DNA from: Amphiscolops sp. MND2022
Lineage: Eukaryota
Assembly: GCA_964187785.1 (NCBI GenBank)
Contig: OZ076409.1
Span: 49,416,001 to 49,480,000 of the forward strand
Reading direction: 5' to 3'
Length of the DNA: 64,000 bases
Shown: positions 6,907 through 51,236 of the stretch, piece after piece
Layout: every line of letters starts with the position of its first letter
Position numbering within the stretch: position 1 is the stretch's first letter
The notes under the pieces: generated by a model
The model's database searches: none
Seen by the model: only the letters and a program-made list of their open reading frames with translations
What the model was told of the DNA's origin: nothing
Position numbers and translations under genes: made by a program

Positions 6907-8957
6907 TGTCACAGCCGCCACAGGGCCGTGAAATAATAAGAACAGAGAGAACGCCAGAGGAAAGAAATGGAGAAATTAACCAAGAAGAAGCTAATAAACC
7001 ATCACAAACCTGAAAGAAAACAATCAACAAACAAACACTCATTGATATTGAACAACCCTGTAAGTGCATAATATTAATATCATCAACCCCCTGCAGTACC
7101 TGAAATACATAAATATGTAAATAATTAAATAATAATAACTTGTTGTAAATGCGATTTGTTTGCAGTAGCTTGACCAATACGCTGATTGAAGTTATTCCAA
7201 CCAGCGCACTGACCAGCCTACCGTCCCAATATCTGAGTAGCAAAATACACTAATTCTCACTGTCCCTTTAATTAACCAATCAGCGCTAAGCGCGAATGTG
7301 CAGTATTAATTCAGTTACTCTGCTAGCCAAGCAATTCAGTCGACAAAGCTGGGACGCACGCCTGGCTGCTCGACTGAATTACCTGAAATGCTAGTGTAAT
7401 CAAACGACGCTAAATGTGAAATAAACTCAAATTCAGAGCTTAGAAGAAGCTTAAAATATGCAGTTTTAAGTAATAGAGTTGGAATATGTAATATTTATAA
7501 TATACCAAAGTACAATTGTTAAGTTGTCAACCATGATTTCTGGGACAACCGCTGGGACAACCGGTTTATATTTATAAACTGGGACGACCGCCGGGACAAC
7601 CAGCCCAACTTAGATGGAGCAGTAAAGAACTAAAACACCAATAGATAATGAATAACTGCCTTAATACATGTAAATGTGCTATCTTAATTATACATGGAAG
7701 GTTACAAATCATTCAAGCGAAGCGAAATGATGAATAATATTAGTACGAGCCGGGACTCCCGCCTGGACAACCGTTTGATTAATTAATGATGTATCAAATT
7801 TGAGTGAAATATTAATACGTTATGATAGTGACAATCGTTCGACATACCATATTTGTTGACCGAATGGAAATTACTCCCAGATGCTACCTAACTGAATAAT
7901 CTTGCCCCCCTTTTCACATGCATTAATTTGGGCTGTTAGCCTGGTTGCTTGACCTCGTTTGAGTATTATGTCCGTCGACCAGGCATGTGTTTAATGTCAA
8001 ATTTGTGAAAGTGCGTCGATAGTTGTGATCATCACCCCTAATTTTGTCAATTCACAAAATAGTGCAGTTTTCTCTTATGTTGAATTGCTTATTTTATTTA
8101 AAGGAAAATTCATTTCCTTTTCCCGCTTCAGTAGCTAGGTTCATGAATTTCAGTGCCAACTTCACCTTCGGCGTCTTGAAAAGGCGGGAAATGAAGAAGA
8201 AAGGGACGCGGAATTGGGAAGCGGCAGGAAGTGAATTCCCACTTTTCTTTAAAGTGGGTTGAAACCGAATGCCGAGTCCCGAGGAAGAATACCTTATTTG
8301 GATTTCCCCGCTTTGGAAAGGACGCCGAGGTGAACAAGGTGTGAATTCACGCGCGGGGTTTTCCCCGCGTGTCTAGCGTAAAGTATAAATACCTGAAGCG
8401 GGATTAGGAAAAGTTAGTTGATAATTTGATTTTTCCAAGTGCGTTTGATTAACCGTTCTCCGGAAATTTTGCCTTTGTAATAATTGTTTTAATTACTTTG
8501 CTTAATATAATTCTTTTGTTTCGTAAACCCTGACAATTCACTGAACTGAAGTCTCCATTACGTTTGTAACGACTCAAGTTTAATTGAAATATTGTCTCTC
8601 CATTATTTTGCAAGATGCCTGAGAAATCTCAAAAACGAAAGTTGAGGAGTGACCAGTCAACTAGCCAGTTCGACATAGAGACGGCAAGCTCAATCAACGA
8701 CGAAAACGCCGTACTTTCGGAAAGGGATTTTGAAGACATATCTAACAAAATTGAGAATAAAATTTCTAAGCGCCTCAGAGACACTGAGCTCAATCAACGC
8801 GAGATATTAAAATTGATTGAGAGTCTGTCGTCCAAAGTTGACAACCTATCAAGTGTCAATTCTGAACAAGGTTATTTGACGACCAGGACCGAGAATAGTG
8901 GAAACCCCACTGAAGAACTAGAAGAAGTTAGTTTGTCCAGGAACGAGAGTTCCAACA
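6907..8957 (+). repeat. Element B 5' LTR (2051 bp)
   Basis: TGTCACAGCC...TTCCAACA; near-identical to 20536-22584. Confidence 0.97.
8384..8391 (+). promoter_or_regulatory. TATA-like box of the element B LTR
   Basis: TATAAATA about 230 bp upstream of the gag ATG. Similar GTATA(A/T)ATACC motifs sit upstream of gag in C (36396) and in solo LTR D (26020). Confidence 0.55.
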
Positions 8958-10033
8958 TGGTGACAGGAGTAATTAGCGAACCAACCTCCAGCAACACCAC
9001 CCACCCCCGATCTTCGAGCCTGCCGCCTCCAAACCAGAGGCACTCCGACGAAATCATCGACAAGCTGTTAGAATCCCTGTACGCAACACAACAACAGACA
9101 GCACAATTACCCCGTCTACCAAAAACGCTTGCCACGACAATGCCAACATTTGACGGTAAAAACGAAAAGTTTGAACTCTTCGAAGATTTGTTTCAAACAA
9201 GCTTGAAGGTCCATCCCCAAATAACGGAGCAAGAGAAAATACATTATTTCCACTCCCTACTGCGAGGAGACGCCTTGCAAACCTTTCGGAACATGACCGA
9301 AACAACCAAAACCAACCTGAACGACATCATCGCCGGATTCAGACGACGATATGTAAAAACCCAGTCAATAGCAACTGCTAGGTGTAAGTGGGAAAACCTC
9401 ACATTCGACCCGGCGAACCAAACATTCCAAGATTTCTTGGAGAACTACCAGAAACTTGCCCAAGAGGCATACGCCGACGATGCACCCCGCTTTATAGAAA
9501 CCTCCTTCTACGCAAAAATGCCGATACATCTCAAAAGAGTGTTAAATCAAGCACGCCTCGAAACAGCATCATATGAAACGATGGTCCAGCACCTAGAGCG
9601 GGAGATGGAGCTCAACGGATTGGCAAATCCAGAATCCACTACATTTACCGGCATACACAATGTCGAACCCGCCAACACATCCAATCAGGGGAGACACCCG
9701 AAAACTGCAAGCACGTGCTTTGGCTGCGGACACCAGGGCCACCTCCTCCGCAACTGCAGAAAGACAAACCGAGATAAACGGAACCAAAAACCCCCCAGCA
9801 ATATCATCACCAACCCCTGCGAAACATGTGGCAAATTAAGCCACGAGACTAAAGACTGCTATTCCGGGGCGAACTGGGCAAACCGCCCTACATGGTGGAA
9901 AACGCCTAAATCAACAGGCGCCAATAGTATACCCCTACCACAACAACCTGCACCCGAAATTATACAACAACCTTCAGCAAATCAGCAGCCACAAACCGTG
10001 GCACAACCACAATACCAGCCAAAAAACTACTAA
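8615..10033 (+). CDS. gag: Element B Gag (472 aa); first ~114 codons lie inside the LTR; two CCHC zinc knuckles
   Basis: Open ORF with retrotransposon capsid-like segment (MPTFDGKNEKFELFEDLF) and knuckles CFGCGHQGHLLRNC and CETCGKLSHETKDC. Confidence 0.93.
   Translation: MPEKSQKRKLRSDQSTSQFDIETASSINDENAVLSERDFEDISNKIENKISKRLRDTELNQREILKLIESLSSKVDNLSSVNSEQGYLTTRTENSGNPTEELEEVSLSRNESSNMVTGVISEPTSSNTTHPRSSSLPPPNQRHSDEIIDKLLESLYATQQQTAQLPRLPKTLATTMPTFDGKNEKFELFEDLFQTSLKVHPQITEQEKIHYFHSLLRGDALQTFRNMTETTKTNLNDIIAGFRRRYVKTQSIATARCKWENLTFDPANQTFQDFLENYQKLAQEAYADDAPRFIETSFYAKMPIHLKRVLNQARLETASYETMVQHLEREMELNGLANPESTTFTGIHNVEPANTSNQGRHPKTASTCFGCGHQGHLLRNCRKTNRDKRNQKPPSNIITNPCETCGKLSHETKDCYSGANWANRPTWWKTPKSTGANSIPLPQQPAPEIIQQPSANQQPQTVAQPQYQPKNY
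8958..8969 (+). promoter_or_regulatory. Primer binding site of element B (TGGTGACAGGAG; tRNA-Leu-like, inferred)
   Basis: Directly follows the LTR CA and begins TGG (complement of tRNA CCA). Resembles the Leu-tRNA-type PBS TGGTGTCAGGAG. Confidence 0.85.
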
Positions 10034-13000
10034 AGCCACGTCTTCGCTTCGGGGACTACACCGACTTCAGATACTACACCATCTCTGAACCCCCGAAGGA
10101 CTTCGACAAGGAATTATTTATGGAATGCTCAGGTGAACCATCGATCGACTGGCAGCGACGATGGCTCATAAGACGCATCATCAAATTCAACAAAAACACC
10201 TTGGACAAACTCCCCTACCCAGACTGGTACACCCAAAACCCCACCCAATACAACACAACACGCAGACCATTACTTCCCAGCTCCACACCCGAAACTTACA
10301 TCTACGACCCCGACTTCGAATGCGACCCATACTACAACGACGCTCTATATGACTCAACAAACCTTGTCTTCAGACAGTCAATCAACGTACCATTTCATGA
10401 ATTCATTGCCAAAACCAACATGGACATCTCGACAACTCCAAGAAGGAAAGACGACCTCAGTCATACTCCCGAACCACAGGCTGAAGAAGAATACGACACA
10501 GAAATCACCGTGATCGTAACACCTCCAACGACTTCCCTCAAGTCAATCCTCAAACACAACAATCAATCGCCACTGGTTGACTCCCAGTCACCCACGAAAC
10601 TACCAGCCACCCCCAATGAAATCCGGGCAGCTATGACGTCGTCCCCCTCCAGTCCAGAGAGTCCTGAACATAAATACTCCACCCCTAAAACCCTGGTTGA
10701 CGACACAAAAGCCGGGGACCAAACAATTGCAAGTCAACTCACAACACAACCGAGAACTCGCCGCGTCAAACGAACTCTGACCTGCGAATTCAACCAGCAA
10801 ACAGAAGCTAAAACAGCGACAAACAGCCCACTCATCACTACCCAAACCTCAAGAGAAGAGCCAACCAACCTAGAACAAGACGAAGAATGGATTCAAACCA
10901 ACAAACAATTGCATGAAATTGCAATTACAGACCCAGAAACAAGCGAACAATGCATACCAATTTTTTCGGCCATCAATCTGAAAAAGAAAAGGAAAATGCT
11001 CTTCGCCCCGATGGATTTCAACAACATTTCAGTCGACGCGCTTGTTGACTCCGGAGCACTCGTCAACTGCTTACCAGAAAGTGAATTCCAGAAAATCAAA
11101 ACAGTAAGCCCAGACAACATCCTCAAGGAAATGGATCCACCAACATTTAAATTGCAGGTCGCAAACGGCGAGATAGAAACCCCCACAAAAACAGTTCAAC
11201 TACAATTTGAACTAGGCGACTGGACGTTCAAAGAGACGTTCATCGTAGCCACAAAGATGACAGGGCCCATCCTCGGACTAACCTTTCTCAAAAACAATAG
11301 CGCAATCCTCGACGTCAGTCAGGCCCTCTTACATTTCCCTCACCTGACTTACGCAATTTCTGCAGACGATAACGAGACAATCTCAAGACACCATAAAGTC
11401 ACTACCAAAACCCAACTCACCATCATGCCCGACCAGTGTGTAACAATTGAAGCCGGCATCAACCTACGTACCCTGACAAACACCACAGGAATCATCAACC
11501 CTACTGAACCATACTCCGGAGAACACCAACTGGTAGTAGCCAGCTCTCTATCAACAGTTACAAACTCCAAAATCGAAATCAGGGTTACCAACACATCTCC
11601 AAACCCATTCACCCTCAAAAAGAACACAAATCTTGCAGAATTCACCATTCTATCCCCCCAGGAAGCCAAGCAACTCCACCCACTCAACTCTGCAGCCCTA
11701 AAGGTATTAGCAGAAGACGATTCCGAACAGGCGCTAGAATATGTAAACGAACTCCTCAAATCGTCTGAAAAGCCTCAGACTGTTCAAAATTTCTGGTTCC
11801 CCACACCGGAAAACCCAGGAGACCCATCAACACACACACCTATCCAGAGCAGGATACTGAGAGAGATAGAAGAACTGGAAAACATCCAGAAACTCAATCC
11901 TCAAGACAGCCCTGAGGACAGAGCAACTTTCCTACCCAATTTCAAGTGGACGGATTCACAACTCAGTGATGAAGACAAAAAGGACATAGAAGCAATCCTT
12001 GTAGAATACAACGATATCTTCGCAAGGCACCGTCTTGATATCGGAATTAACAACGAATCCAAAATAAAGCTCACCCCCAAATCCGAACAGCCAGCGTACA
12101 CTCAAAGCCTACCCTGCCCAGTCAACCTGAAAGACGACTTGACAGTCGAATTGGCGTTAATGCACTACTACGGCATAATCACCACGCTCCCTTTCAGCAA
12201 GTACGCAAGCCCAATATTTGCCCAAAGAAAACCAAACGGACGCCTACGATTGCTAGTTGACTTACGAAAGATCAACAACCTCATTTCCGACGATTATATA
12301 AATAATAATCACCCTGTGAGCACCCTCTCGGATGCAGCTCAGCATTTAGCCGGAAAGAAACTGTTTTGCAAGCTTGACTGCTCTCAAGCCTACCACGTCC
12401 TGCAAATGGCAGACCAAAAATCAGTGGAACTCCTGGCGTTCAACTTTGCCAGTCGGACATTCGCCTACCTGCGACTCGCACAAGGGCTCAGCAGATCTCT
12501 CTCCTCCTTCTCGAGCTTTATGCGGGAGTATCTTGACCGAGTCATCAAAGCCGACAAGTGCGCCCAGTACGTCGACGACATCGGGATAGCTACCCATGCT
12601 GCCGAGGAGCTGAAGAACAACCTGCGTGAGGTCTTTCAGTGCATAAGAGAAGCAGGTCTGCGTCTGACAATGGCTAAATGCCAGTTCGGTGCCAAGGAAG
12701 TCGAATTCCTTGGACGAACAGTCTCACCCGAAGGAATCGCCCCACAGAGTCACAAGATCAAGAACTACCTCCAAAAACTGTCGTTCCCAAAAACCAAAAA
12801 GGGCCTACAGAGGTATATTGGTTTCGTCAATTATTATCGGAACTACATACCTCGCCTCTCCGAAAAGATAGCACCCTTCCACGAATTAGTCAAGGCAGAC
12901 AAACCAATCAAGATCACAAACGAGATCATCGGGACATTCGACAACATCAACAAGGCACTTGACAACGCTTGTGGGCTATGGCTGAAACAACCACTACCCA

Positions 13001-15396
13001 ACAAACAGTACGTCCTCATGACAGACGCGAACTTCAAAAATGCAGGCTACGCCCTCATGATTGAAGAAAACGCTGATGAAAAACTGACCTCAGTTAAAAA
13101 GACTTACGCCCCGGTAGCGTTTGGTTCCAAGACATTCTCTCCGTCTCAAATCAAAATGTCAATATATGCCAAAGAATTCTTGGCTATATATTTCGCCTTC
13201 ATGGAATACAGCCACATATTGTGGGGATCGACCAAACCGGTCATCGTCCTAACAGACAACAAGTCCGTCACACGGTTTTTTCAAACCAAGATAATACCAC
13301 CAGCCTTGTGGAACGCCTGCGATTTCGTCCTACAATTCAACTTTACGATCGCCCACGTCCCAGGGCGCATGAACACCGCAGCTGATTTCCTTTCCCGACT
13401 TGACCTAGACCCAAAGGAAAAAGTCCAACTCTTAATCCGAGACGACATTCAAACAACACCAATAGAGGTACACATTCAATCCTCCAACGTCGCAGAAGAG
13501 GAACAGTTCTACTTCCTCCCCGATGATGACATTGAAACCGAAGAACAAATTTGGGAGAGGAAGCAAAGAGCCCGCAAGAAAATTCTAGGGAACGACACCC
13601 CACCAACGCCAGGAGAAGAAGCAAATAATGAAACAGTCCAAACAGAAGACACCACAGTCATATTTCAAACGGAAATAACAAGACACAACAAAACCACCGA
13701 AGACAAAGAAAACACCCTCCCAACTGACATGCGACACCAACAGGACCAAGACAGTGTCCTCAGAAACTACAAACTGCGCCTCCTCAAGGAACCATACGAT
13801 GAACACCTGATGGCCACAGACCACAGGGCACTCCGTTACACAGCGCAAGAATCGAGAATCATACTCAAAGACGGACTGCTATACCGGCAGTACTTCGGAG
13901 AAACCGGAACAGTCAAACACCTGCAAGTACTACTCCCGGAGCAACTGGTCGACTCCTTCATCGAGGCACACCATGGAATGCACAACAAACACCCGGGAAT
14001 AACGAAAGTAATACAACAATGCAGAGAAAAGTATTACTACCCAAGTCTCGCAGCAAGGATAGCCAAACATATCAACCAATGCATGAAATGCATGCAAACA
14101 AAACGAACAGACAATCGCCTCCTAACCCCACCAATGATCGACACGTCCAAACTGGCAATGGGACCGGAAGATGCCCTACAAATGGACATCGTCCCCTTCG
14201 ACGAGCCATCCAACGGATTCACAGCGATAGTCACCGCCATGGACGTCTTTTCCCGCTACCTATTTACCTATTGTGTCACCAAAATAGATGCCCGCTCGAT
14301 CGCAAGAGTACTGGTAGACATAATGACAAGACATGCTTACCTGCCCACAACGATCATAACTGACAAAGGAACCCAATTCATGTCCGAAGTAATGGCTGAC
14401 ACCACACGCGTTCTAGGCATCCAATTGAGACACGCAACTACAAAACATGCCCAAACAATTGGTATCCTAGAACGCTGTCATGCATCCTTAAAAGAAGCCC
14501 TGAAAATATCAACAGGAGAAAGGAGAACAATGTGGCACCAGTTCGTACCAACCGCCACACTAAACTACAACACAACCTACCACTCAGCACTAGGGTGCGA
14601 ACCCAGTAGAGTATTCCATGGCAGAATACCATACAACGTGCTTGACTTAAAGTTCGGTCTCAAACAGAACCAAACCCAAAACCCAAGAACAGACATAGGC
14701 GAAGAAGTCGTCCAGAAGACCCGGATGATACACCAATCAGTAACCAAACACCTCCTCCACTCCTACATACGCTACAAACAGTACTACGATAAAAAAGCTT
14801 CTGCCCACCCCCTAGCAGCAAACGACTACTGCTACGCCTTACATCCCCAGGCAAACAACCAGGGATCGAAACTACCTTTCCGCGAGTATTTATGGACAGG
14901 ACCATTCGTAGTAGTTAAAACCCTTCCCGACAACAACTACCTAGTTCGTAAATTGCAAACGAACAAGACCCAAATTCTACACAGGATACGACTGAAACCA
15001 TGCCCCACGAAAAATCGCCTTCCTGATATACAAGTTCAAACCAAGGACTTTCAACCAGACGATGAAGTTGAAATCCTACACGATGACCTATACGCCCTAG
15101 CCTGGCAATCAGGGTTTGAACACTTCATGATGACCCATAACCACGATTCCAACAACGAATCGGCAATCAACCCGACCGATAGTCATGACGTCTTAGAAAA
15201 CATTGCCCAGGATGACACCCACGATATCCTAACGGAACCCCAACCCGAACAACAGGAATCCCAACCAGAACCCAACCCAAACCCAGAGCCTAGTTCCCCC
15301 CGCAAAGGCAAATATAACCTTCGCAGCAACCCCCCTTCAAATTGGAAAAGGGACTACGCCTACTACAACCCAATGGTTGTTAGCTCAAACGAATAA
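10021..15396 (+). CDS. pol: Element B Pol (protease, dUTPase-like, RT, RNase H, integrase), expressed by -1 frameshift
   Basis: 1758-aa ORF from 10120, open back to the slippery site at 10021. Motifs: LVDSGA, YVDD, RNase H (MTDA...TDNK), HHCC, integrase core, GPF. Confidence 0.96.
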   Translation, partial: KKLLKPRLRFGDYTDFRYYTISEPPKDFDKELFMECSGEPSIDWQRRWLIRRIIKFNKNTLDKLPYPDWYTQNPTQYNTTRRPLLPSSTPETYIYDPDFECDPYYNDALYDSTNLVFRQSINVPFHEFIAKTNMDISTTPRRKDDLSHTPEPQAEEEYDTEITVIVTPPTTSLKSILKHNNQSPLVDSQSPTKLPATPNEIRAAMTSSPSSPESPEHKYSTPKTLVDDTKAGDQTIASQLTTQPRTRRVKRTLTCEFNQQTEAKTATNSPLITTQTSREEPTNLEQDEEWIQTNKQLHEIAITDPETSEQCIPIFSAINLKKKRKMLFAPMDFNNISVDALVDSGALVNCLPESEFQKIKTVSPDNILKEMDPPTFKLQVANGEIETPTKTVQLQFELGDWTFKETFIVATKMTGPILGLTFLKNNSAILDVSQALLHFPHLTYAISADDNETISRHHKVTTKTQLTIMPDQCVTIEAGINLRTLTNTTGIINPTEPYSGEHQLVVASSLSTVTNSKIEIRVTNTSPNPFTLKKNTNLAEFTILSPQEAKQLHPLNSAALKVLAEDDSEQALEYVNELLKSSEKPQTVQNFWFPTPENPGDPSTHTPIQSRILREIEELENIQKLNPQDSPEDRATFLPNFKWTDSQLSDEDKKDIEAILVEYNDIFARHRLDIGINNESKIKLTPKSEQPAYTQSLPCPVNLKDDLTVELALMHYYGIITTLPFSKYASPIFAQRKPNGRLRLLVDLRKINNLISDDYINNNHPVSTLSDAAQHLAGKKLFCKLDCSQAYHVLQMADQKSVELLAFNFASRTFAYLRLAQGLSRSLSSFSSFMREYLDRVIKADKCAQYVDDIGIATHAAEELKNNLREVFQCIREAGLRLTMAKCQFGAKEVEFLGRTVSPEGIAPQSHKIKNYLQKLSFPKTKKGLQRYIGFVNYYRNYIPRLSEKIAPFHELVKADKPIKITNEIIGTFDNINKALDNACGLWLKQPLPNKQYVLMTDANFKNAGYALMIEENADEKLTSVKKTYAPVAFGSKTFSPSQIKMSIYAKEFLAIYFAFMEYSHILWGSTKPVIVLTDNKSVTRFFQTKIIPPALWNACDFVLQFNFTIAHVPGRMNTAADFLSRLDLDPKEKVQLLIRDDIQTTPIEVHIQSSNVAEEEQFYFLPDDDIETEEQIWERKQRARKKILGNDTPPTPGEEANNETVQTEDTTVIFQTEITRHNKTTEDKENTLPTDMRHQQDQDSVLRNYKLRLLKEPYDEHLMATDHRALRYTAQESRIILKDGLLYRQYFGETGTVKHLQVLLPEQLVDSFIEAHHGMHNKHPGITKVIQQCREKYYYPSLAARIAKHINQCMKCMQTKRTDNRLLTPPMIDTSKLAMGPEDALQMDIVPFDEPSNGFTAIVTAMDVFSRYLFTYCVTKIDARSIARVLVDIMTRHAYLPTTIITDKGTQFMSEVMADTTRVLGIQLRHATTKHAQTIGILERCHASLKEALKISTGERRTMWHQFVPTATLNYNTTYHSALGCEPSRVFHGRIPYNVLDLKFGLKQNQTQNPRTDIGEEVVQKTRMIHQSVTKHLLHSYIRYKQYYDKKASAHPLAANDYCYALHPQANNQGSKLPFREYLWTGPFVVVKTLPDNNYLVRKLQTNKTQILHRIRLKPCPTKNRLPDIQVQTKDFQPDDEVEILHDDLYALAWQSGFEHFMMTHNHDSNNESAINPTDSHDVLENIAQDDTHDILTEPQPEQQESQPEPNPNPEPSSPRKGKYNLRSNPPSNWKRDYAYYNPMVVSSNE

Positions 15397-18700: not shown

Positions 18701-19712
18701 AATTGAAGACGATAATAACCTTTTGCCCACTCATTGTGGATGACCGACCGCTCCAACCCCTCTACTGGTCGTGAATGCTGTGTACGCTCACGCTTTGGTC
18801 GGAAACCCGCATCACCACCACCACTCGACACAGCCTCGTCGGCCACAGTGGGAACAATCATTGCATCGGAAGACGACGAATCCACTCCCATAGAAGCTTC
18901 TCCATGGACTTGTGAAGAACCAACTGAAATCAACTCGTACTCATCAATAAGCAGAAACAATCATTCGAACGAGCACAGCCAAGGTATTTATATAATGCTA
19001 GAGGAAGAAAGAAATACCCACCTTCAAAACCTGCAATAGGCGACGCCGCTGATCTAGTGGTCATCCCAGCACACCCTCCAGACTGAGACCAACGGCCTTG
19101 GTTAGATGGACTAGCACCACTAACAGATGCCACAGCAGAGCGAGACCCAGGGACATAATCATCATCACGAGAATCATCGGACAATCCTAAAACAGCAAGA
19201 AAGGTGGATGAAATGACGCGTCTGCATACTAGCATGAAAAGTTAGCTGGCCACTAACATTTCGCTAAGCAACTTACCCTCTAAATCACATAAATAGTCCA
19301 AATCGTGGCGTGCATCACTTTCTGTCGAATGCATTGAACCAGCATCGTCACTATCTGAACTGCCATTGTTACTCGCACTCTCAGAACCCGTGTCATCGGA
19401 ACAGTCATCATTGTCAATCTCCCCGAATCCACTACCACGTTTAGCACACTGGGACTCCAACCCAGCCAACGACTCCATAACTTCTTCTTCACCACTTGAC
19501 TCAGCAATAATCAATCGGGACTCAGCAGCACTTTCTTCCTCCTGACTCTCTTGACCTGCCTCTTGCAGCAGAACGCCCGTCAGTTCACTCTCTCCCTCAT
19601 GACTCTCTTGACCTGCCTCATGTAACAAGATACCTTCTCCCTCGCTCTCCACAACTCCAATTTTTCCAGACCGCAAAATCCGCTGGTCATCTTCATCAGT
19701 CGAATGCGACAT
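15729..19712 (-). CDS. Element B antisense multi-exon cargo gene: acidic N-terminus, C2H2/BED-like zinc finger, hAT-transposase-like body. One in-frame TAG at 16779-16781 (possible pseudogene copy)
   Basis: Predicted exons 19712-19277, 19186-19031, 18923-18720, 18607-18482 and 18328-15729. All four GT-AG introns are phase 1 and join in frame (~1174 codons). Finger CAICRKDISFLWRGELEIWRHFGCKTH. Homologous to the cargo gene in C. Confidence 0.75.
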
Positions 19713-41200: not shown

Positions 41201-43418
41201 CAATACAGCGGCAGACTACTTGTCCCGTATGGAAATGGACCCTAGTGAAAAGTTAGTCCTGAAAATACGAGAGGACGTAGAAACTAGACCAATCGAGGTC
41301 AATGTCCAATCAGCCGGCGTATCAGAAGAAGAGCAAATTTTCTTCACCGAGGACGACAACGAAACAGAGGAACAGATTTGGAAACGCAAACAACAATCCA
41401 AAAAAGGACTCATGGTCCCTGAGACAGTAATCCAAATTGACGCTATATCAGAAAATACCGTCGAAGAGATTACTAATTTCACGCAGAAATTAAGAAGAAC
41501 AAATCAGATACTGCTTGAGCAATCCAGAGACCCGATTCTCCTCCAATTGAAGGCGAAACTTCAAAAAGAAGAATACTCTGAAGAAATCCTTCAACAGGAT
41601 ATTCGGTACAAGTATTACTTGAACAACATAGACCGAATAGTCCTCAAAGACGAGATAGTGACACGGCAGTACTACGATGAAACCGGACAGGTCAAATATC
41701 ATCAAATCTTATTGCCAAAGCATTTGCTCAAAGAATTATTACAAGCAATACATGGCACGGCACATCGACACCCGGGCATTTCTAAAATGCTACAAGAAAT
41801 TCGCCAGAAATACTACTACCCCGGAATTGCTAAACACGTCAAAAAATGGGTAGAAGGCTGCGAAACATGTGCCAAGGACAAAAGAGTCCCCAACACGGTA
41901 ATCACCCCAGAATTACTGAATTTACCTGAATGGGACCTAGGCCCAGAAGATGCCATGCAAATTGACTTATTACCAAACTTACCAACTAGCGGCGGATACC
42001 AAACGGTGATGACGGCAATAGATGTATTTTCAAGATATTTATTCGCCTACCCGCTAATTGAGGCAACAGCCGCAAACGTAGCCAAGGTGATAATTGACAT
42101 CATGACGAAACATTCGTATTTGCCAACAACACTCATCACGGACAAGGGATCTGCATTTACATCAAAAATTTTAGAAGAAATTACTGCAATACTGGGGATC
42201 ACATTGAAGTGTGCCACTACTAAACATCCGCAAACTATTGGTAAACTCGAAAGGACACACGCCTCTTTAAAAACCAACCTAAAGATGGCCTCAGGGGAAT
42301 ACCGTCGTCAATGGCACAAATATTTACCATTAGCTGTGCTTAACTATAACACTACTTATCACGCTAGCATTGGTTGCGAGCCTAGCAAAGTCTTTCATGG
42401 CCGCATTCCCTATAACGTCCTGGATCACAAATTAGGGAATAATCCTAACAAAAATTTCCTACCGACGACTGAATTCGCGGAAGAATTACAGCAGAGGACG
42501 CAAATCCTCATTGATCAGACCAAAAAGAATATTATGCAGTCGTATTTAAAGTACAAGGAGTACTACGACCGCAAGGCCAAAGCGGCTCCGCTACAAGAAA
42601 AGGACTATTGTTTTGTTCTTCAACCAAAAGCGGATAGTCAAGGCTCTAAAATACCATTCAGGGATTTCCGTTGGATTGGTCCTTTTGTCGTTCAAAAAAC
42701 TCTACCAAATAACAATTACATAGTGCGTCGTTTAAATACGAATAAAACGCAAATTTTGCACCGGATAAGGCTCAAAAAATTTGTCCCAAATGCTCCATTA
42801 GAGGACAAATACCAAGAAGAGAAATTGCAGCCTGATGAAGAAATCGTAATACCGCAAGATGACTTGTATACCATTTCATGGGAAGCGGACTTTGAATACG
42901 AGCAATTCGAGCCGAAGAAAAATGATTGGCCAGACACGGCCACGCGTCTACCGCAAGACGCCACGAATGGTGGAGTCGACTATTACGTCACCGAGAATGA
43001 AAGCAGCAGAGCAAATGAAAGTGAATGCAGCAGCGAGAGAATGAATGAAAATGACGTCAGCGAAAACGAAATAAGGCCGAGACCGGCTAGCAGCCGTGAC
43101 GCGTCGTCCCTTCCACATGAATCGACTACTGGGGCGGAAAATGCAAATGACGTCAACGAGAATGAAATAAGGCCGAGACCGGCTCGCAGCCGTGACGCGT
43201 CGTCCCCACTGAGCGAAACGCCACGTGGGACGGCAAATCAAAATGACGTCACAAATGATTTAGAAAATGCAGAAATTGCTTCAAAAGGAGGCGTAGATAT
43301 TACCGTGCCCGGAATATCGGAAAATGGAAAAGATGAAGAAACTTCTAGCCCTAGAGGAGGGAAATATAATCTTCGACCTAACCCCACCCCCAACTTCACT
43401 GATGAATACAGATACTAG
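38214..43418 (+). CDS. pol: Element C Pol (protease, dUTPase-like, RT, RNase H, integrase), expressed by -1 frameshift
   Basis: 1721-aa ORF from 38253, open back to the slippery site at 38214. Motifs: LIDTGA, YVDD, MTDAS, HHCC, integrase core, GPF. Confidence 0.96.
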   Translation, partial: KKLISPRLQICNKMSVRQYVISDPANITYKQTQNDTTGMPSTVWQQQMADARRETQYIIHSDHPYLYRRNSNRNDLETHFRPLKTVEDYNPQYYDPEYGKDPYWDEELYDKTNLQFRNEDYPPTDDEDDPDIEDNTLSRALIDLWQPNFEATIQEVDTIHTQEDHKAPNSLLDETVFLHLLVTNEGELPYVPLSTNLGLKFKRRMLYFPMDFGELTLDGLIDTGAHSSAIPEADLRKIRLLAPQSIVKEGPAPSFQIMVANGDLETPKSTVELKFEVGDIEFHEIFIVMEKLSSPIIGLMFLQRNHTVLDMRQGILNFPYFSMQLKTADHKYSNVLEPILNPEDVTIPPNDHVVIPIQSQIYAENAVTGILQPSDLLHEEGDITFCAAIVTLHEGAMRIHVNNFTDQPYKIKKGMHIANFSVMTPEQMKHVRPIDPVSTWHLLNENEDDAIYYISSLLKANRNNDQYEQYWFPTPENPGDETTHTPIQQRILKELRNLQSLEQLNPHDDTESRRKFLSNFDWKDSMLQQHEIRQIETLLVEFHDIFARHRFDIGVNEEFTVKLTPKDESPAYSQSLPTPVNLKEDILVELALLHKYGIITTLPFSKYASPIFAQKKPNGKLRLLVDLRKINNLISDDYINNNHPVSTLTDAAQHMAGKKLFCKLDCSQAYHCLPMADQKSIEMLAFNFASRTFAYRRLAQGLSRALSAFSSFMREYLDRVIKADQCAQYVDDIGVAATDADQLIVNLRATFQCIREAGLKLSMHKCHFGATEIDFLGRTITPEGVKPQKERITNFLEKTKFPKSKKALQRYLGFLNYYRNYIPRLSEKLVPFFQLLKKDEKVLVTQELVEQFNEINRDLDRCSQLALKQPLPNKQLVLMTDASFTAAGYAILTEDDPNQKYTSVKKSYAPIAYGSKTFTPSQLKMSIYAKEFLAIYYAFKEFGHIFWGTPQPVIILTDNKSVTRFFQTKIIPPPLWNACDFVIQFNFIIAHITGKNNTAADYLSRMEMDPSEKLVLKIREDVETRPIEVNVQSAGVSEEEQIFFTEDDNETEEQIWKRKQQSKKGLMVPETVIQIDAISENTVEEITNFTQKLRRTNQILLEQSRDPILLQLKAKLQKEEYSEEILQQDIRYKYYLNNIDRIVLKDEIVTRQYYDETGQVKYHQILLPKHLLKELLQAIHGTAHRHPGISKMLQEIRQKYYYPGIAKHVKKWVEGCETCAKDKRVPNTVITPELLNLPEWDLGPEDAMQIDLLPNLPTSGGYQTVMTAIDVFSRYLFAYPLIEATAANVAKVIIDIMTKHSYLPTTLITDKGSAFTSKILEEITAILGITLKCATTKHPQTIGKLERTHASLKTNLKMASGEYRRQWHKYLPLAVLNYNTTYHASIGCEPSKVFHGRIPYNVLDHKLGNNPNKNFLPTTEFAEELQQRTQILIDQTKKNIMQSYLKYKEYYDRKAKAAPLQEKDYCFVLQPKADSQGSKIPFRDFRWIGPFVVQKTLPNNNYIVRRLNTNKTQILHRIRLKKFVPNAPLEDKYQEEKLQPDEEIVIPQDDLYTISWEADFEYEQFEPKKNDWPDTATRLPQDATNGGVDYYVTENESSRANESECSSERMNENDVSENEIRPRPASSRDASSLPHESTTGAENANDVNENEIRPRPARSRDASSPLSETPRGTANQNDVTNDLENAEIASKGGVDITVPGISENGKDEETSSPRGGKYNLRPNPTPNFTDEYRY

Positions 43419-43612
43419 TCAGACATGTAAATTAAAGTCCCATAAGTCTCTTGGACTAAACTAATATTTTTTACTGGGACTACTCTGACTCCGAACTTTT
43501 CAAATAAATACAACAAACAACATACAAAACGCTTCAATAAATAAAAGGAAGATCAGTTCGTTTATGTTAAATACAAAATAACAGACTAAAGAACAAATGT
43601 ACATATGTACAT

Positions 43613-46600
43613 TTAAGATTTAGTGGTCTTCTGTCCAGATTCCTGTCCGCTTGCGGTACCCTTCTCAGTTTTGGAGCTATCGAAAGAAACTTTCTTTTTT
43701 CCTTTCCCAGGAGAAGATTTGCGTCGAACAGCAGCAGGAGAATTAGATCGTGAACCAGTTTTACTCGAAGAGGCTGACCTTGGCGCCCGGACCACAGATT
43801 CGTAAGCGGCATGGAGGGTCTTATAAAAATCAGCTCGCCCAAAAGTGTCGACGTGAACCCAAGGGTCACCAGCCACATTGCCAGAATTGAATTGCTGTTC
43901 AACCTCACGATATTTACACAAAGAGACATCATTAGTGCAAACTGAGATGGCGTCAGGGACTCGTGCTAGGAAGGACTGAGCAGGGAGCAACACGTCACCC
44001 AATCTACACCGAGGACTCTGCGCGTCAACGTCCTGAAAACGGATATATGGAAGCAATGGGGTGTCCTCTGTCAAGCACAAACAGCACAATCGAAATAAAC
44101 GATATAAATGATGTCGACTTCGGAGCTCAGCCATATTAGATAACAGCTCCACTATATCAGTAAAACCATCAGGCGAATCTTCCAGGGCGGCATACTTTTC
44201 GCGAAATAAGTCGACAAATTCTAGGTACTCGTCGCGACAGTCGTCTTCAGAGGATCCTTCCAACCATCCACGGAGATTGAAACTGTGATACAGTGCTCGG
44301 AAACAATAGGTCGCCTGGTCCCGAGGCAAACGCAAGAGGATGTGCGGGTCAAAACTGGCCATTCCCTTCACAATCTCAGCATTGATGCTGTGATGCGCTA
44401 GCAGCTTCTCAAGAAGGTAGACAACGTACCCCCTTGCCTTTCCAGCGAATTTCTCCTTGCATTCCTCAACGAGCTTGGAGAAATTAGGTATCGGCCCTTC
44501 CTTGTCACTGTGATCTCGCTTGACCTTAGATTCAGCAGCTCCATCTAGATCTTCTTTCAATTTCAATCGATGGAGAAAATCCCTGGAGGAGAGTTGTCGC
44601 AACTCAGCAGTCCGCAGAATGGGTAGTTGGGTCCAATCAGTTTCGCTGGGATGATGCTTGGGGAGCAGAGAGCGATAGCACAACTTGCGGATGAAATTAT
44701 TTAACTGCCCAAAGGTGAAGAAGCCAGCGTCCCTGTATCCAACTAGACTTCTCTCAAAGCAGCGAATATCTAAACAGAGAAATGGACCTCTGAGCATAAC
44801 ACCTTACCCGGTGAGTCCCTGTGAAGAAAATGCGTGAGCGACCACAAGTAAATTCCCTCCGAAACGAAAGCAATACTCACAATCATAGACGATCTTTCCA
44901 AAGAATTCCAACTTGACTAGGAAGAAGTCATCGGAGATGATAGTCCACTCCAGACTCTGTGGCTAAAAGGAAACAAGAGCAACTAATGGATAGTGACCTT
45001 GGGATCACACGTCATGAGGAGAAAATCGAAAAAGGGACAAAGAAAAATTGAAACCTTATTTTTAACTCCTCGCATTTCGTAACCAGGGGCAATCCTAGTC
45101 AGGTGGTCAAGAATTGGCTGCCAGTTACTGATCAATTCGGTACAAATAGCTGGAATGCACCGTATCTTCAGGTCAAAGTTGCTTATAGCCTAAAAGGAAC
45201 ACTCCCTGCTATGAAATGTACAAACATTGTGCAGACATGTGGGTCCAACAATATTAATTCAAACCTTGGCCAGTTCTGGGCAAGAAGACATCCAAGGCTC
45301 ATCAAGACTGTTGTTGAGGAAGGCCAGTAGGTACTTCAGCTGTGTGAAGAAGTCAATCCGCCCAAACACACTACCTTCAAGCTGGTGCATTAGCTTGGGG
45401 AGAGAGAAGGCATTGAAACGGAATGGGTACTCGATGCCCTTCTTGAACAGCCCGGAACGTTCAACTGATCGCAACACTTCAGATGTGCACCCAGATATGC
45501 AGGCAATTTGTGGCAGCGTGGAAAGGAAGGAGAGTAGACGGGAAATCATCTGTAACTGACTGGGGCCAGGGTCCGAAGGTAGAGGGTATTTACACAATTG
45601 GACCTTGGTCAGGATCCCCACCTTCCAGTACCTAATTGAGAGGATGCACTGATTTCCATGTGGCTCAAACTCCAGAGAGTACGCTCCACAGGAATTCACA
45701 GACTGAGCTATATCCTCCATTCCTCGCAAAAAGACGTGGTGAAACATGGCCTGGAACAGAACGAAATCACTAAAAACTTAGAAAGAACAAACTATAATCT
45801 GATGGACTTAGTGGATTAAGTGACACCCTCAAAAATCATACGTCTGGTGATCCTAATTTGCAGAAAAGATGAAAAGACTTACAGTGAGCGTGAGTGAACT
45901 CCAGTCAAGCTGTCGGAAAGAGTCTTGATGGTTGGTGAAGTTCCCAACCTCGGCCCACAGTCCCTCCAGTATAGCCAAGTTGCCGAAATGCGGAACTGCT
46001 CGTCCGATCAATGAAAGTTGCGTACCCAACCTCAAATCTTCAGGGCATGCGATTCCACCAGCACTAGCCATGTAGTCGTCATAAAAGGGGAATCTAGGGC
46101 CAATGTCCACTAACGGAGCCGATTCGAAATGGGGCTTCTCTTTCTCTAATTCTAGAGCGGATAGAAGATGTCCGTCTTTCCCTCTAACTGCATGGACGGT
46201 TTGTCCACTGAGTTTGTCCACCCTACTAAGGTGTTCGAAGCGCCATCTTTGGTCTTTGCGCAAATGGGTCTCGCTCTGGTAGTGTCTCACGATCTCTCTG
46301 GCCCCTTTGGTATAAATCGACACATTCGTCTTGCAGATCTGGCAGTAGAATTTGTGCTTGTTATGCACAGGGTCTAGGGGTCCAGTCACGAAAACTTTGG
46401 TCCACTGAATGCCTTTGAAATAGGCGGCTTTCATGATCTTGCCAGGCCTGCCTACAAACCTTCGCTTCTTGCGTGGTGGACTGCCTCCTGGTCGACGTGA
46501 TTGGTCTTCTCCCCGTATGGCACTTAGAGGTTGATAGTCCCCCTCGCTGTAACCTGGGCTAGGGACTGTAGTGTGGCTGGTACTAGGGACCTTGTCCATC

Positions 46601-47613
46601 TCATCATCGGAAGTATCTGGGAAACCAGAACGTCCTCTTGGTAGTGGTGTTCCACAGCGTGGCCTGGACGCAACAACGAGATCATCATCGGAGGAGAGGG
46701 CTCCACTTGTATAATCATCGGTTATTCCTCCCTCACTTTCTGTATCAGCACCGGAGCTACTGGGACCGCCTTGGGTAGGAAGCACGCCTCGAACCATCGA
46801 TTTTCGGAACTGCCCAGGAGTTTGTTTCCCAGCCCCGTAGACAGCATGTAGGACAAGGGAGCGCATGGCATGGATGGATGATTTTACGGTTTCATCCGAT
46901 ATGGTCTTGAGGACGGCGTGTATCTGTGGCTCACTAAATGAAATGGTATTATGGCCTTTGGGCAATTCAATTGGGGCAGAAGAGGAAAAGTGCTTTCTTA
47001 AAACAGCCTGTCCATTAGCTGAGAATTGTCCTGGCAGTTTCACCTCTCTAGTCCCGGACTTTGTGGATACAGGCACTGTACCACTTATATCTTGGCCGGA
47101 GGTACTCTCTGCTGCAGATGGTAATTCAGTACAAGTAATGCTCGAGGTAGGGCGTTTGCGTGTTCCTTCGGTACCCATCTCGTCAAGCAGTTCGCCAGCC
47201 TCGCTAATATCAGAGGTAAAATACGACTTTGCCTTATCGTGTGACTCAAAGTAATTGCCAGTCTCCTTAGAAGTCCCTGGTTGCATTTGATCGAATGAAG
47301 AGGTCTCCTCTCCTAGGCGTTCAAAACCTATCGACTGAGAAACCTTCCCGGGCCCTGCTGTTCTAACTTCAGGCTGTGCCAATGGTGGGAGAAATGAGAT
47401 ATCCAGAGAAGGATCATCACCGGCCAATGCTCGTAAAGTTTTCTCTGCGTAAGAAGTTACGCTCTCTTCAGTGTTTCCACTACTGGATGACTGGTTGGAG
47501 TCAGGACGCATTACCACTACTGGCTCTTTTGGTGCTGTATTAATTTCTTCGGCAACCCCAGAATTCTCTGATGTTGGAAGAATTGTGTTGGTGACTTGTT
47601 CTTCAGACGCCAT
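43613..47613 (-). CDS. Element C antisense multi-exon cargo gene (~1196 aa): disordered N-terminus, C2H2/BED-like zinc finger, hAT-transposase-like body
   Basis: Predicted exons 47613-45883, 45750-45265, 45189-45055, 44962-44881 and 44769-43613. GT-AG introns of 132, 75, 92 and 111 bp (phases 0, 0, 0, 1) give a stop-free frame that aligns with the intron-free core of the B protein. Finger CQICKTNVSIYTKGAREIVRHYQSETH. Confidence 0.8.
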
Positions 47614-48854
47614 GTCTAAATAGAAAGAAATGAATTCAAGCGGCGAGCTTCCTGAGTTAAAATCCATTAGCCGCGTTAAAAATCTTCCGGAAGTAGATTA
47701 GATTGAACACTTGTGAACACTTGTGTTACGTGGACAGGAAGTACTTGAACGAAAAGAGAGCCCTGATCAAGCCTCAAATTAGTTCGAAAATCTAGCCTAA
47801 CTAATGAAAATGTATGAAGAACAACTGACCTGTAAATGTTCCAATGCGGAGGAGTCGGTAGATGATAGTTAAGACAGTAAATCGAGCCGAGCCGACAGCT
47901 AGTTGGAGACGTCCAAAAATGGGCCTAGATGTCGATTTTCCGGGAGAAGCAGTGGAAATCCACGAAGGTGAAGATGAATGGACGCTGAGTCCCAAGATGA
48001 AAGTGGGGTGGAGAAATGGAGAGATGTATAAAATAAACACGACTAAAAGACTAACAAGTGACTAAATACAAAGTGGATAAATATGTTGGTGATTAAATAC
48101 GAAGAAGAAAGAGTAATACGACTGCAATTGAATGTAAAAGAATTGAAAAGGCGAATCAGCAATGTGACAAGATGTCAAGATTGGAGTTCGTGGCTATACA
48201 GTTTGGTGTCAAATTTACAGTTATTTACATTTTACGGCATTATGTGGATAGAGTCTGCCACTTTATCTACATTTCCTTTATTTATTTCGAAAACTTTGGT
48301 ATTTTACAAAATTATTTCATGATTTTATCTTGCTTTATTTTATTTTATATTATTTTCAAGGTCATTTTATATCATTTCCTTATACGGGTTCGCGACCTTG
48401 AGAAGCCATGTTAGCTTGGGAGAAATTTTGCTGCTTTCTTATTGGCTGAGCATATTGATGGTGGACGGCGTGGCTGATCGTCATATCTTCACCCACTTGA
48501 AATCCTCAAGTATCTGATGAGTGTTAATAAACACTCGAGACCGCGCTCTTAAGTTAGAAGTGTTAACTTAGGTGTTGATGGATAGTTAAGGCGGCGCCGA
48601 CAATTACAAAGCAACTCTGCGGCTTGATGAAAGAATTCGAAAAGGAAGAATTTTGTTGTCGAGAAGTTATTACTTGGAGAGGTAGTGGAACCCCGGGAAA
48701 AACGAAACGAAGAGACTCACGGTCTGTCGGAAATAAATCCGCCATTCCTCTCAGTTTCATTCTTGAATTCAGCCGTCCTCTTCAATCATTTCTGAATTGA
48801 AAACCACTAAATTCTTTCAAGATAGCGAAGAAAATATTCAAAAAAAGATTTGAT

Positions 48855-49694
48855 ATGAATAGCCTTGTCTCGCCTTTGTATGACTCCGAACCCGAAAGGA
48901 CCTATCCGGAGGACTTCCAAGGAGCTGCCCCGGGAGATGGGATCATTTACATTTCAAGCGACGAAGAGGAGACGATGGAATGCAGGAGCGTTTCCTCGAT
49001 AACCGATTTCTTGTCCTCCTCGGAGGATGAGTCGGAAGAAGTTGCTCAGATGGCCTTATGCGTCGAAACACAGATGTCCGAGCCCATAGCAATTCCCTAC
49101 ACCTCTTCTTCTGCCGCGAATCAGGCAAACGAACACAGAAGGCCAAACTTGCCTCCGTTTCCTAAGTTCGACCAGACTTACTTTAGCCTGGGGAGAGGCA
49201 ATGGGCCCCTAAGGGCAGACAGTAGAATTAAGCGGAACCACCCGATAAACTTGTGCCGCAATCTTGTCCCGATGGTCGATACGCCACTATCCCCACCAGA
49301 TGCAGACAGAGGACAATACTGCCCTCAACCAACATCGAGTGGGTCTTACGCATCAGATGCCCCGACGATTGATTCTATGGCCAATCATTTTAATGACTTG
49401 GAGATCGGGGTGCCTACAGCTGAATCGACCTATTCGGACTGTGTGATCTGTGGTAAATCAACACATCAAATACGCGAGGAAGCTGCAGATGATTACATCA
49501 GTAAGACGGTCGCAGTGGGAGAAACGCTAGCGGAGACGCAAGCAAGAAAGAGAGCATTTCTAGACGGGATGACAGCCGGAACTTTTCTTCTCTTGCCAGG
49601 GGGAGTGTCGCAGGCTCCCGCCTGCGATGGGAACTTTTACACCATCAATTACAGCTGTTTTCGCGCCCTCCCAGGTACTCTACCAATAAACTAG
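48855..49694 (+). CDS. Element C ORF3 (279 aa), acidic/S-rich with a CxxC motif, ending inside the 3' LTR
   Basis: ATG-initiated ORF that reads through the PPT and 89 nt into the LTR. Its C-terminal SQAxACDG...PGTLPI is conserved in both solo LTRs. Confidence 0.75.
   Translation: MNSLVSPLYDSEPERTYPEDFQGAAPGDGIIYISSDEEETMECRSVSSITDFLSSSEDESEEVAQMALCVETQMSEPIAIPYTSSSAANQANEHRRPNLPPFPKFDQTYFSLGRGNGPLRADSRIKRNHPINLCRNLVPMVDTPLSPPDADRGQYCPQPTSSGSYASDAPTIDSMANHFNDLEIGVPTAESTYSDCVICGKSTHQIREEAADDYISKTVAVGETLAETQARKRAFLDGMTAGTFLLLPGGVSQAPACDGNFYTINYSCFRALPGTLPIN
49598..49605 (+). promoter_or_regulatory. Polypurine tract of element C
   Basis: AGGGGGAG directly before the 3' LTR TG. Confidence 0.8.
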
Positions 49695-51236
49695 AGGAAA
49701 GGACCATGTGTCCCATTGTCATGACGGGACAAAACTTCAAACTGAGCTTGTAATATTTTTACGGCATGTCTATCATTCTATTTTCAGTTTTGACAGCCTT
49801 ATATATATAATCTTGTGCAAATTAGTAATCGGAAATACCATTTGGTTATTTGAAAACTTTGAAGTTGATTTTGATATATTGATGCATGTAAATAATGTAT
49901 GTTTAAATGTGTTAGCTAAGAAATTGGACACCAAGGCGTACAGGCAAAGGAAACGAGTTCAAATGTTTCCTTTCCTGTCTCGCTGGACACGCAGTCCGTT
50001 CAAATTCTTAGCCAATCAGAACACGCCATTCATTTCATTCACTGTGCGCAGTACTCTAAATTAAAGGACTCAAAGGCCACGCGCCGTCAGCTAGCAGTAA
50101 TTTGCTGCCTATTTACGGTAAATGGACACTGAGTCCAAATTGAAGTAAAGTGCAATTTACAGTGGTAAATAAAGGCTATGATTGGTGTTTCTAATAAATA
50201 CTCGTTTTGATGAAGATTACTGGACCATTTGTACCATTTGATGCTAGATACTAATAATTTACATGAATACTCAGATTAATGAATTGGTACATGTAAGTTA
50301 TGGTTGATCAAATGTAATTGCATGTAATGTTGCTTAACCTCACACATGAAAGGCCTTGAAGGATGCTTGGACCTACAATCCTTCTATATATGGAATTGTT
50401 GAAGGCGCTTAAATAAATCACCCCTTTGAAGTGACCCTTTCGTCATGCCGCCTTCATGGCTATAAATAGTAGGTGCTATTTTTAGATAGCTGTGAAGGCT
50501 ATTTTTAGAACGTGACCCTCATTATTTTGCAAGTCATGTAAACCTGAGTATATATACCGCGGACCCTAGGTCCCAAGGACTTTTTCAATTTCCTTGATAC
50601 CGTAATACTCAAACTTGTAAAATCGTTCCAACATACTCTGTTTGCAAGCCTGAGAACTTAATTTAAATTCTTACCTCTTGCAATAAACTCTTATGCCTTC
50701 CACAAGAAGACAGAAAGCGAAAGCTAGAAAATCCAAAGAGATGGACATGTTGTCCGATATGGACAATTTAGACGTGATGATAGGGAGTGAAAATCCTTTA
50801 GAAAGAGAGTTAGCAGATGTAATAGACCAATCTTCCATTAATGGTGACATAGAAACTGATAGTCACTCGAGAAATGATCTTGGAGATTTCATTCAAGGAA
50901 ATGAGCCTCATGGTCGAAATGACATAAGACAATCCTTTGAAACCCTTTCAAATGAATTTAATCTTAGGTTATCTCAAGAGATGGATTCCATGATGGCCAT
51001 GGTACATAGTCAGATAAATAGAGCAATCAGTACTGCCATATCAGAGAAGGTGTTACCGGAGATTCAGAATATTGTGAGTTCAATGTCTTCCTCTGGAAAC
51101 AGGGACACTGAGGCTAGCATGTCCCCTGACAGTCAGGAAAATAGGGAAAACCCATCTGGCTTGAAAACAAAATTATTGAAAAAGGATTCACGGTCCGTTG
51201 GTGATTTGAGAGACACCACGGGACGTGGCTCTTACA
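49606..51236 (+). repeat. Element C 3' LTR (1631 bp)
   Basis: Only one difference from the 5' LTR noticed by eye (36641 G vs 50793 A). Retains an open Gag N-terminal frame, 50693-51313. Confidence 0.97.

Follow-up and report, generated by a model that had tools for sequence, protein, structure and literature searches.

A Spliced Antisense Gene of Predicted hAT Transposase Fold in a Clade of Ty3/gypsy-Type Retrotransposons of Amphiscolops sp. MND2022

Introduction

The question considered here is why a retrotransposon should carry a long, spliced gene on the strand opposite to its own coding strand. It is raised by a stretch of 64,000 nucleotides from the genome of Amphiscolops sp. MND2022 (assembly GCA_964187785.1, contig OZ076409.1, positions 49,416,001 to 49,480,000 of the forward strand; hereafter the window), which contains two long terminal repeat (LTR) elements, B and C. 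Between pol and the 3′ LTR, both carry an antisense gene and, divergent from it, an open reading frame in the sense direction (ORF3). To judge from its conserved splice sites and codons, the antisense gene is a real, spliced gene under purifying selection; its product is predicted to have the fold of a hAT transposase (Hermes), and the gene moves as a cassette between elements. The antisense protein and ORF3 are likely, in the model put forward here, to be regulators that help the element to stay switched on.

Two Elements with a Common Layout

B and C are recently inserted elements of the Ty3/gypsy type (Metaviridae). Both have TG..CA LTRs, target-site duplications (TSDs) within the expected 4–6 bp (the 5-bp sequences GTATT for B and CGTAT for C), a tRNA primer-binding site (PBS), a polypurine tract (PPT), and gag followed by protease (PR), reverse transcriptase (RT), RNase H (RH) and integrase (IN); in a self-comparison of the window, the LTR pairs are 99.56% (B) and 99.94% (C) identical. 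The layout described in the initial annotation was found in both: paired LTRs, a gag that starts inside the 5′ LTR (343 nt of it in B and 544 nt in C), a pol that overlaps gag in the −1 frame with an A_AAA_AAC heptamer immediately before the gag stop, the antisense gene, and an ORF3 that continues into the LTR. The PBS, TGGTGACAGGAG in both elements, corresponds to the 3′-end pattern of tRNA-Leu(CAG), which has 857 matches in the genome as against 0 for controls; ARAGORN called a tRNA-Leu at one of four loci matching the pattern. Many of the 857 matches belong to a tandem array (G000:C8:35587799-35639269 and beyond). The two elements are nevertheless as diverged as had been noted, since the self-comparison gave no DNA match between their LTRs and the proteins are 32% (Gag), 52% (Pol) and 26% identical, the last over 174 aa of the zinc-finger region of the antisense protein (E 1e-11).

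Distribution of the Antisense Gene

A 14-mer composed of the LTR end and the PBS occurs at 7,527 sites in the 1.07-Gb assembly, as against 1 for the reversed control. The first 30 consecutive sites in order, chosen by the PBS alone and blind to cargo, were searched with profiles made from natural segments, and the antisense gene was detected at 23 of them, on the opposite strand every time. Five of the seven sites without it are short or internally deleted (S03, S08, S09, S20, and S26), and the other two (S11 and S25) have a divergent Pol. In an RT tree of elements of this genome only (37 rows, quick method, midpoint root; 6 of 43 loci had no usable RT), 35 rows form one clade with 100% support, comprised of five subclades, and S11 and S25 fall outside it; at least 120 RT homologs occur among the matches listed, none of a named clade. 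The antisense gene is present in all five subclades. The mining of further copies for the same synteny, which the initial annotation had advised, thus bears out its proposal of a stable lineage with accessory genes as far as the spliced and selectively constrained antisense gene is concerned. Because trees of the zinc-finger exon and of the RNase H-like exon show deep groups broadly as in the RT tree, a single ancient capture of the gene is suggested.

S11 (L086:4128-7248) and S25 (L114:3135-7617) represent a sister lineage with the same PBS and an env-like ORF at the ORF3 position, broken in both. In S25, this ORF opens with a signal-like sequence and has hydrophobic segments and an RTKR site; it was judged env-like by eye and gave no Pfam match and no PDB sequence match. 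Both also have a small antisense ORF, unrelated to the antisense gene of the clade and 38% identical between the two, with 67 matches in the genome, many of them split as though spliced. The divergent gene layout may be older than the hAT capture. Within the clade, S19 (L102+L103; LTR identity 99.7%) has both cargo genes and a frame of 1,746 aa that runs from the LTR-borne gag start directly into pol with no capsid match; it is likely to be a non-autonomous derivative.

Splicing and Selection

In C, the predicted antisense gene comprises 1,196 codons plus a stop, every exon is free of internal stops, and its four introns are of the GT-AG type (132, 75, 92, and 111 nt); the pieces match the intron-less exon of the B type. 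Checks of the eight C splice sites over 13 diverged C-type copies were positive in 103 of 104 cases. For B, in an exon model that is partial, the splice sites at 19276, 19187, 19021, 18608, and 18481 are kept in five or six of six copies, and the intron after the finger exon is missing; the other subclades have it. The window copy of B has an in-frame stop at 16779-16781; however, 22 of 38 genome matches that are at least 90% identical to it are open, with a frame of at least 868 aa without a stop. The spliced gene anticipated in the initial annotation is upheld by the conserved exons and introns of C, whereas the B copy is interrupted and the intron patterns of the two differ. In unsaturated pairs, dN/dS is 0.053–0.086 for the core of the protein and 0.20 for the disordered N-terminus; near-identical pairs give 0.24–0.37, on few changes, and in most other pairs the synonymous sites (pS) are saturated.

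A Predicted hAT Fold Without Catalytic Residues

A natural open-frame copy was folded with AlphaFold 2 on a 27-row alignment, giving a model with a predicted local distance difference test (pLDDT) score of 74.6. The model has an RNase H-like core with a helical insertion, as in Hermes. The top 11 rows of a Foldseek search are all the Hermes hAT transposase (E 7e-5), and VIA-align places residues 149–647 of the model on residues 135–609 of Hermes (Z 13.8, root-mean-square deviation 5.3, 400 residues), the next unrelated chain reaching Z 6.3. The sole match below 0.001 in a viral library is a hAT protein, and the neighbors in the ESM Atlas are hAT, FAM200, ZMYM, and C17orf113 clusters at 0.90–0.93. 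The predicted fold thus lends support to what had been a guess in the initial annotation, namely that the gene is hAT-like.

The catalytic residues, by contrast, are missing. Asp occurs at the strand-1 catalytic column in 0 of 32 rows and at the strand-4 column in 0 of 35, Glu being present at the former in 15 of 32; no column of the RNase H-like region holds D or E at 80% or more; and [TS]RW and ERxFS-like motifs were seen in only 1 and 2 of 102 segments, respectively. In nine host hATs used as a control, D, D, RW, and E are invariant. The antisense protein thus does not have the D-D-E triad and the RW and CxxH motifs of an active hAT. On the other hand, the ligands of its C2H2 finger (CxxC..H..H) are conserved at 95% or more in 35 copies. 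The N-termini are acidic, runs resembling a nuclear localization signal (NLS) are present (PPRKKRRF in C and RRKKRQ in B), and the highest 19-residue hydropathy of the B protein is 1.76, in one helix.

Sequence searches with the antisense protein yielded 35 proteins and 825 representatives; the 35 and the best 150 of the 825 are all unnamed, and neither the donor hAT nor relatives in other species were identified among those best 150. A PDB sequence search gave no match. A search of the genome for DUF4371 gave none either, and the control search was likewise silent. Host hAT transposases with long open frames (496–697 aa) and an intact DDE triad are found at L053–L058; none of them aligns with the cargo.

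Exchange of the Antisense Gene Between Backbones

Backbones that are nearly identical carry different antisense genes, exchanged among them as cassettes, so that the cargo is not fixed to the backbone. In gag, pol, and ORF3, certain elements match B or C at 95–98% identity, yet their antisense genes are only 61–72% identical in DNA or cannot be aligned; the boundaries are sharp, one shortly after the pol stop and the other a short way upstream of the antisense start codon. Between B and L027+28, identity is 98% up to 15514, 65–71% thereafter, and 94% from 19758; C breaks at 43497/48125 when compared with L035+36 and at 43441/47955 when compared with S14. Among six C-like copies, RT-RH is 94–100% identical and the cargo 42–95%; in such copies, the integrase remains 96–100% identical as the cargo falls to 42–81%, and ORF3 is 95–99% identical where the antisense gene is 42–81%. 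The reverse case is S27, in which a C-like antisense gene (93–95%) is accompanied by a different ORF3 (55%) and a different LTR. Assembly chimeras are an unlikely source of these mosaics because L027+28 and L035+36 have target duplications and near-identical LTR pairs (99.5 and 99.9%). The exchange would be explained if reverse transcription had switched template twice, and the presence of old alleles on young backbones may reflect balancing selection.

ORF3 and the Intergenic Region

ORF3 overlaps the 3′ LTR for 104 nt (B) or 86 nt (C), not counting its stop. It was found in four subclades and not in the basal one (S01, S02, S04, S13, S16, and S17), so that the four-gene architecture proposed for the lineage applies clade-wide to the antisense gene but not to ORF3. 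The ORF3s of B and C, to which the initial annotation had given the same place in the layout, do share their position and the read-through into U3; however, they show no BLAST match to each other, and their homology is positional only. Alignment between ORF3 types is possible only for those of C and S19. The reading phase in which ORF3 passes the PPT and enters U3 is shared by 15 of 17 and by 8 of 8 scored elements, a hint of common origin. In most unsaturated pairs dN/dS is 0.16–0.22, with one pair at 0.44.

Most of the predicted ORF3 model is disordered, the exception being a helical hairpin that follows a CxxC; the fold search gave no match at E <0.001, every match in the ESM Atlas was below 0.9, and Pfam has no family for it. 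As stated in the initial annotation, no env-like ORF exists in B or C: the highest 19-residue hydropathies of their ORF3s are 0.5 and 1.1, and the signal peptide, furin site, and transmembrane (TM) anchor of an Env protein are absent. A motif resembling a SUMO-interacting motif (SIM), followed by an acidic tail, occurs in 17 of 26 ORF3 N-termini (shuffled sequences: mean 0.6, maximum 4) and in four of five groups. None of six host loci inspected is a SUMO gene, all encoding ubiquitin, NEDD8-like, or ubiquitin-fusion proteins. Separately, intron-less genes with tandem ubiquitin-like domains lie at L134:955-2487 and L136:949-2466; their C-terminal domain has a YHGT motif reminiscent of ADP-ribosyltransferases.

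The start codons of the two divergent genes flank the intergenic intervals where the initial annotation had placed them (19712/19992 in B and 47613/48855 in C), and from this layout we infer an internal promoter that would serve both. Upstream of ORF3, sites resembling the cyclic-AMP response element (CRE) are overrepresented in 8 of 19 elements (22, with 1.75 expected); neither TATA nor CCAAT is enriched there, and no 8- to 10-mer is common to all five groups.

Possible Functions

The antisense protein is, on balance, probably a nuclear accessory regulator that binds DNA or chromatin and keeps the element transcribed. This reading of the model is favored because the DNA-binding parts of a transposase have been kept and the cutting part lost, while an acidic disordered N-terminus and NLS-like runs have been added. 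Host transcription factors derived from hATs likewise keep the DNA-binding parts, lose the cutting part, and gain acidic or basic additions. According to this scenario, a hAT transposase gene, or else a domesticated host derivative of such a gene, would have been acquired by an ancestor in a single event and lodged between pol and the 3′ LTR. Since the gene lies antisense to the genomic RNA, its introns would not be spliced out of that RNA and could persist through reverse transcription. Transcription of the antisense gene and of ORF3 would start from the internal divergent promoter; the antisense protein would bind DNA via its C2H2 finger and the retained transposase body, and its acidic disordered N-terminus may recruit or block chromatin factors, with ORF3 and its SIM-like motif as a likely helper against SUMO-dependent silencing. 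Old antisense alleles would pass from one backbone to another by template switches at homologous flanks, as may be expected of a gene in conflict with the host. It is tempting to speculate further that a DNA-transposon enzyme was domesticated by the clade to serve as its transcription or anti-silencing factor, that an antagonist of the SUMO pathway was put at the env position of its relatives, and that ancient, freely exchanged alleles of the factor are kept under balancing selection against host silencing, the clade so reaching thousands of copies; this full version is offered tentatively and is rather doubtful as a whole.

Several observations weigh against this picture of a hAT-derived regulator. 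Pfam gave no match for 27 members of the antisense family, and hhalign found no relation between the 27-row alignment and nine host hATs (probability 0.1); the case for a hAT origin is therefore one of predicted structure and of language-model features. To assign the catalytic columns, motif and secondary structure were used, without residue-level superposition, and the zinc-finger region is poorly modeled (pLDDT <50 at residues 1–47). The mosaic patterns are based on one copy per type, and the swapping of alleles under an unchanged LTR speaks against a tight sequence specificity of allele for LTR. The SIM-like pattern was defined post hoc on related rows and is absent from B-type ORF3s, and CRE-like enrichment is confined to the 8 of 19 elements, with CCAAT not enriched.

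The same structural evidence, a Hermes-like predicted fold with catalytic loss, would also fit a dead transposase that limits the element's own transcription, in the manner of HBZ or of copy-number control, or an antisense RNA with that effect, which could pair with the genomic RNA as double-stranded RNA, a role discussed for plant elements (PMC7264820). Such self-restraint seems unlikely: an RNA-only role would need no constraint on the protein, yet dN/dS is 0.05–0.09, and swapped old alleles would better fit a conflict with the host. Slightly less probable again is a tether for integration or nuclear import, which would bind the element cDNA or integrase and steer insertion to tolerated chromatin. 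The body of a transposase is built to hold DNA ends, as established for Hermes, NLS-like runs are present, and B is located inside an LTR of A, a third element of the window; however, nesting is expected by chance in a repeat-rich region, and cargo and integrase do not co-vary in the C-like copies (42–81% as against 96–100%).

The remaining explanations carry far less weight. A matched pair of toxin and antidote, favoring cells or gametes that keep the element in the manner of an addiction system, might be seen in two divergent genes that are both under purifying selection, but it is very improbable given that the two are exchanged independently (ORF3 95–99% with antisense genes of 42–81%, and the reverse in S27) and that the basal subclade has the antisense gene without a detectable ORF3. 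The predicted hAT fold, the cassette exchange, and the Glu found in 15 of 32 rows at the strand-1 column could recall a transposase or recombinase that is still active and mobilizes the cassette or the element, which we scarcely credit: Asp is absent from both catalytic columns, the RW and ERxFS motifs are lost, no convincing terminal inverted repeat is common to the cassette ends of B and C, where old ends would have decayed, and the 5-bp TSDs together with the PBS and PPT indicate integrase. Least credible of all is a neutral passenger, that is, an old nested hAT insertion carried along; intact hAT transposases do exist in the same genome and B's own copy has a stop, but protein and splice sites are conserved despite saturated synonymous sites, the gene is retained in all five subclades, and dN/dS values far below 1 refute it.

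It is well established that hosts have domesticated hAT transposases. In the present case, it is seemingly a class I element that has domesticated a class II enzyme and has retained it, with introns, throughout a successful clade. What antisense accessory genes do in LTR retrotransposons has yet to be settled (PMC11963269; PMC7264820), and the question becomes testable in this system, which offers a cargo of recognizable predicted fold, thousands of natural copies, derivatives with deletions, and backbones that are nearly identical yet carry naturally swapped alleles. Counting every one of the 7,527 sites as full length gives an upper bound of about one-tenth of the 1.07-Gb assembly; in automated annotation, the cargo genes would probably be labeled as host genes.

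Other Features of the Window

The features are listed in Table 1. B was inserted within the 5′ LTR of A, the pol of which has frame breaks; a further A-type element lies on the other strand just upstream. Near its end, the pol of C contains an in-frame 96-bp tandem duplication (43044-43251). Two C-related pieces resembling the Gag N-terminus (26132-26821 and 59727-60373), 68% alike and on opposite strands, are likely to be solo LTRs, given that the LTR contains the start of gag. The copies of a 297-bp direct repeat (92.6%) enclose a 3.8-kb A-rich degenerate coding region at 31034-34837, likely an older short-LTR element, and an inverted stretch related to this region follows C at 51374-54133.

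Table 1. Positions of elements A, B, and C and of their parts in the window.
Feature	Position	Strand	Remarks
Element B	6907-22584	+	15,678 bp
B 5′ LTR	6907..8957	+	TG..CA; contains first 343 nt of gag; TSD GTATT
B PBS	8958..8969	+	complementary to 3′ end of host tRNA-Leu(CAG); within gag frame
B gag	8615..10033	+	472 aa; slippery heptamer A_AAA_AAC at 10021-10027
B pol frame	9928..15396	+	−1 relative to gag; PR, RT, RNase H, integrase
B antisense gene	15729..19712	−	acidic N-terminal exons, followed by a single long exon for the C2H2 finger and the hAT-like body
B intergenic region	19713..19991	.	putative divergent promoter; one CRE-like site at 19811; exchange boundary near 19758
B ORF3	19992..20642	+	216 aa; acidic/Ser-rich; continues through PPT into U3
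B 3′ LTR	20536..22584	+	
Element C	35454-51236	+	15,783 bp
C 5′ LTR	35454..37084	+	contains first 544 nt of gag; TSD CGTAT
C PBS	37085-37096		directly after C 5′ LTR
C gag	36541..38223	+	560 aa; A_AAA_AAC heptamer at 38214-38220
C pol frame	38166..43418	+	−1; PR, dUTPase-like domain, RT, RNase H, integrase
C antisense gene	43613..47613	−	predicted exons 47613-45883, 45750-45265, 45189-45055, 44962-44881, 44769-43613
C intergenic region	47614..48854	.	putative divergent promoter; exchange boundaries near 47955-48125
C ORF3	48855..49694	+	279 aa; SIM-like acidic motif near residue 30; CxxC and helical hairpin at 196-242
C 3′ LTR	49606..51236	+	
Element A	1..6906	−	third family, same layout; antisense gene, ORF3, and 3′ LTR upstream of window
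A 5′ LTR	4913-6906, continuing at 22585-22734 or beyond	−	split by B

Comparison with Known Systems

With Hermes and with host proteins derived from hATs, such as FAM200, ZBED5, GTF2IRD2, and C17orf113, the antisense protein shares a zinc finger, an RNase H-like core with a helical insertion, and a C-terminal helical region. It differs from them in the loss of the catalytic motifs and in its low identity to Hermes (8–13%), and its gene resides on a retroelement rather than on a DNA transposon or, as far as seen, at a single host locus. The working model resembles VANC of the VANDAL transposons (plant Mutator-like elements), a protein that is encoded by the element, binds it, and lifts its silencing. 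VANC is sequence-specific for its family, whereas alleles are swapped under the same LTR in the present clade. Among complex retroviruses, nef of HIV crosses the PPT into U3, and foamy virus has an internal promoter for its accessory genes. The present elements are alike in having an accessory ORF that enters U3 and a putative internal promoter for accessory genes; by contrast, B and C are without env, and neither sequence nor fold links their cargo to proteins of the HBZ or nef type. HBZ of human T-cell leukemia virus type 1 (HTLV-1) is likewise an antisense nuclear regulator (PMC11963269), a role that is predicted from the genes in the present case; the HTLV antisense promoter is in the 3′ LTR (PMC7264820), whereas here it would be internal.

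An internal promoter for a third ORF is also described for the Oikopleura elements Tor3b and Tor4b (PMC4402516), but that ORF encodes a membrane glycoprotein, and no antisense gene is described in the available text of the same paper. The bdelloid elements Juno, Vesta, and TelKA and the planarian Burro are similarly gypsy-like, with a dUTPase-like domain between PR and RT and accessory ORFs other than env (PMC5408684; PMC6431247); their cargo, however, consists of GDSL, DEDDy, coiled-coil, TM, or apoptosis/ubiquitin domains, and the word "transposase" is absent from the accessible text of the bdelloid paper (PMC5408684). The words "antisense" and "dUTPase" are likewise absent from that of a survey of env-carrying metazoan elements (PMC13524379), and the part available of another study treats bulk LTR content only (PMC9911081). 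No report of hAT-derived antisense cargo in an LTR element was found in the literature searched, supplements and Repbase, Dfam, and GyDB aside.

Antisense accessory ORFs are known in the plant Retand and Grande elements (PMC11963269; PMC7264820). In Retand, Grande, and RIRE2, a long region separates pol from the 3′ LTR, and nearly every recent copy has a conserved antisense ORF there; gene23 of Grande has its own promoter and a nuclear product, and it has been proposed that DNA is bound and regulation exerted by this cargo (PMC11963269; PMC7264820). These elements are known from plants only, and their cargo is TRP28 (PF04195), for which no similarity was detected outside transposable elements; the word "intron" does not occur in the text available from these papers (PMC11963269; PMC7264820). 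TRP28, the marker of Retand-type antisense ORFs of plant non-chromoviruses, has no Pfam match in the proteins described here. Unlike Retand and Grande, the present clade has a spliced gene for a protein of 1,200 aa with a predicted hAT fold, has a second, sense ORF that runs into U3, and exchanges its antisense gene as a cassette.

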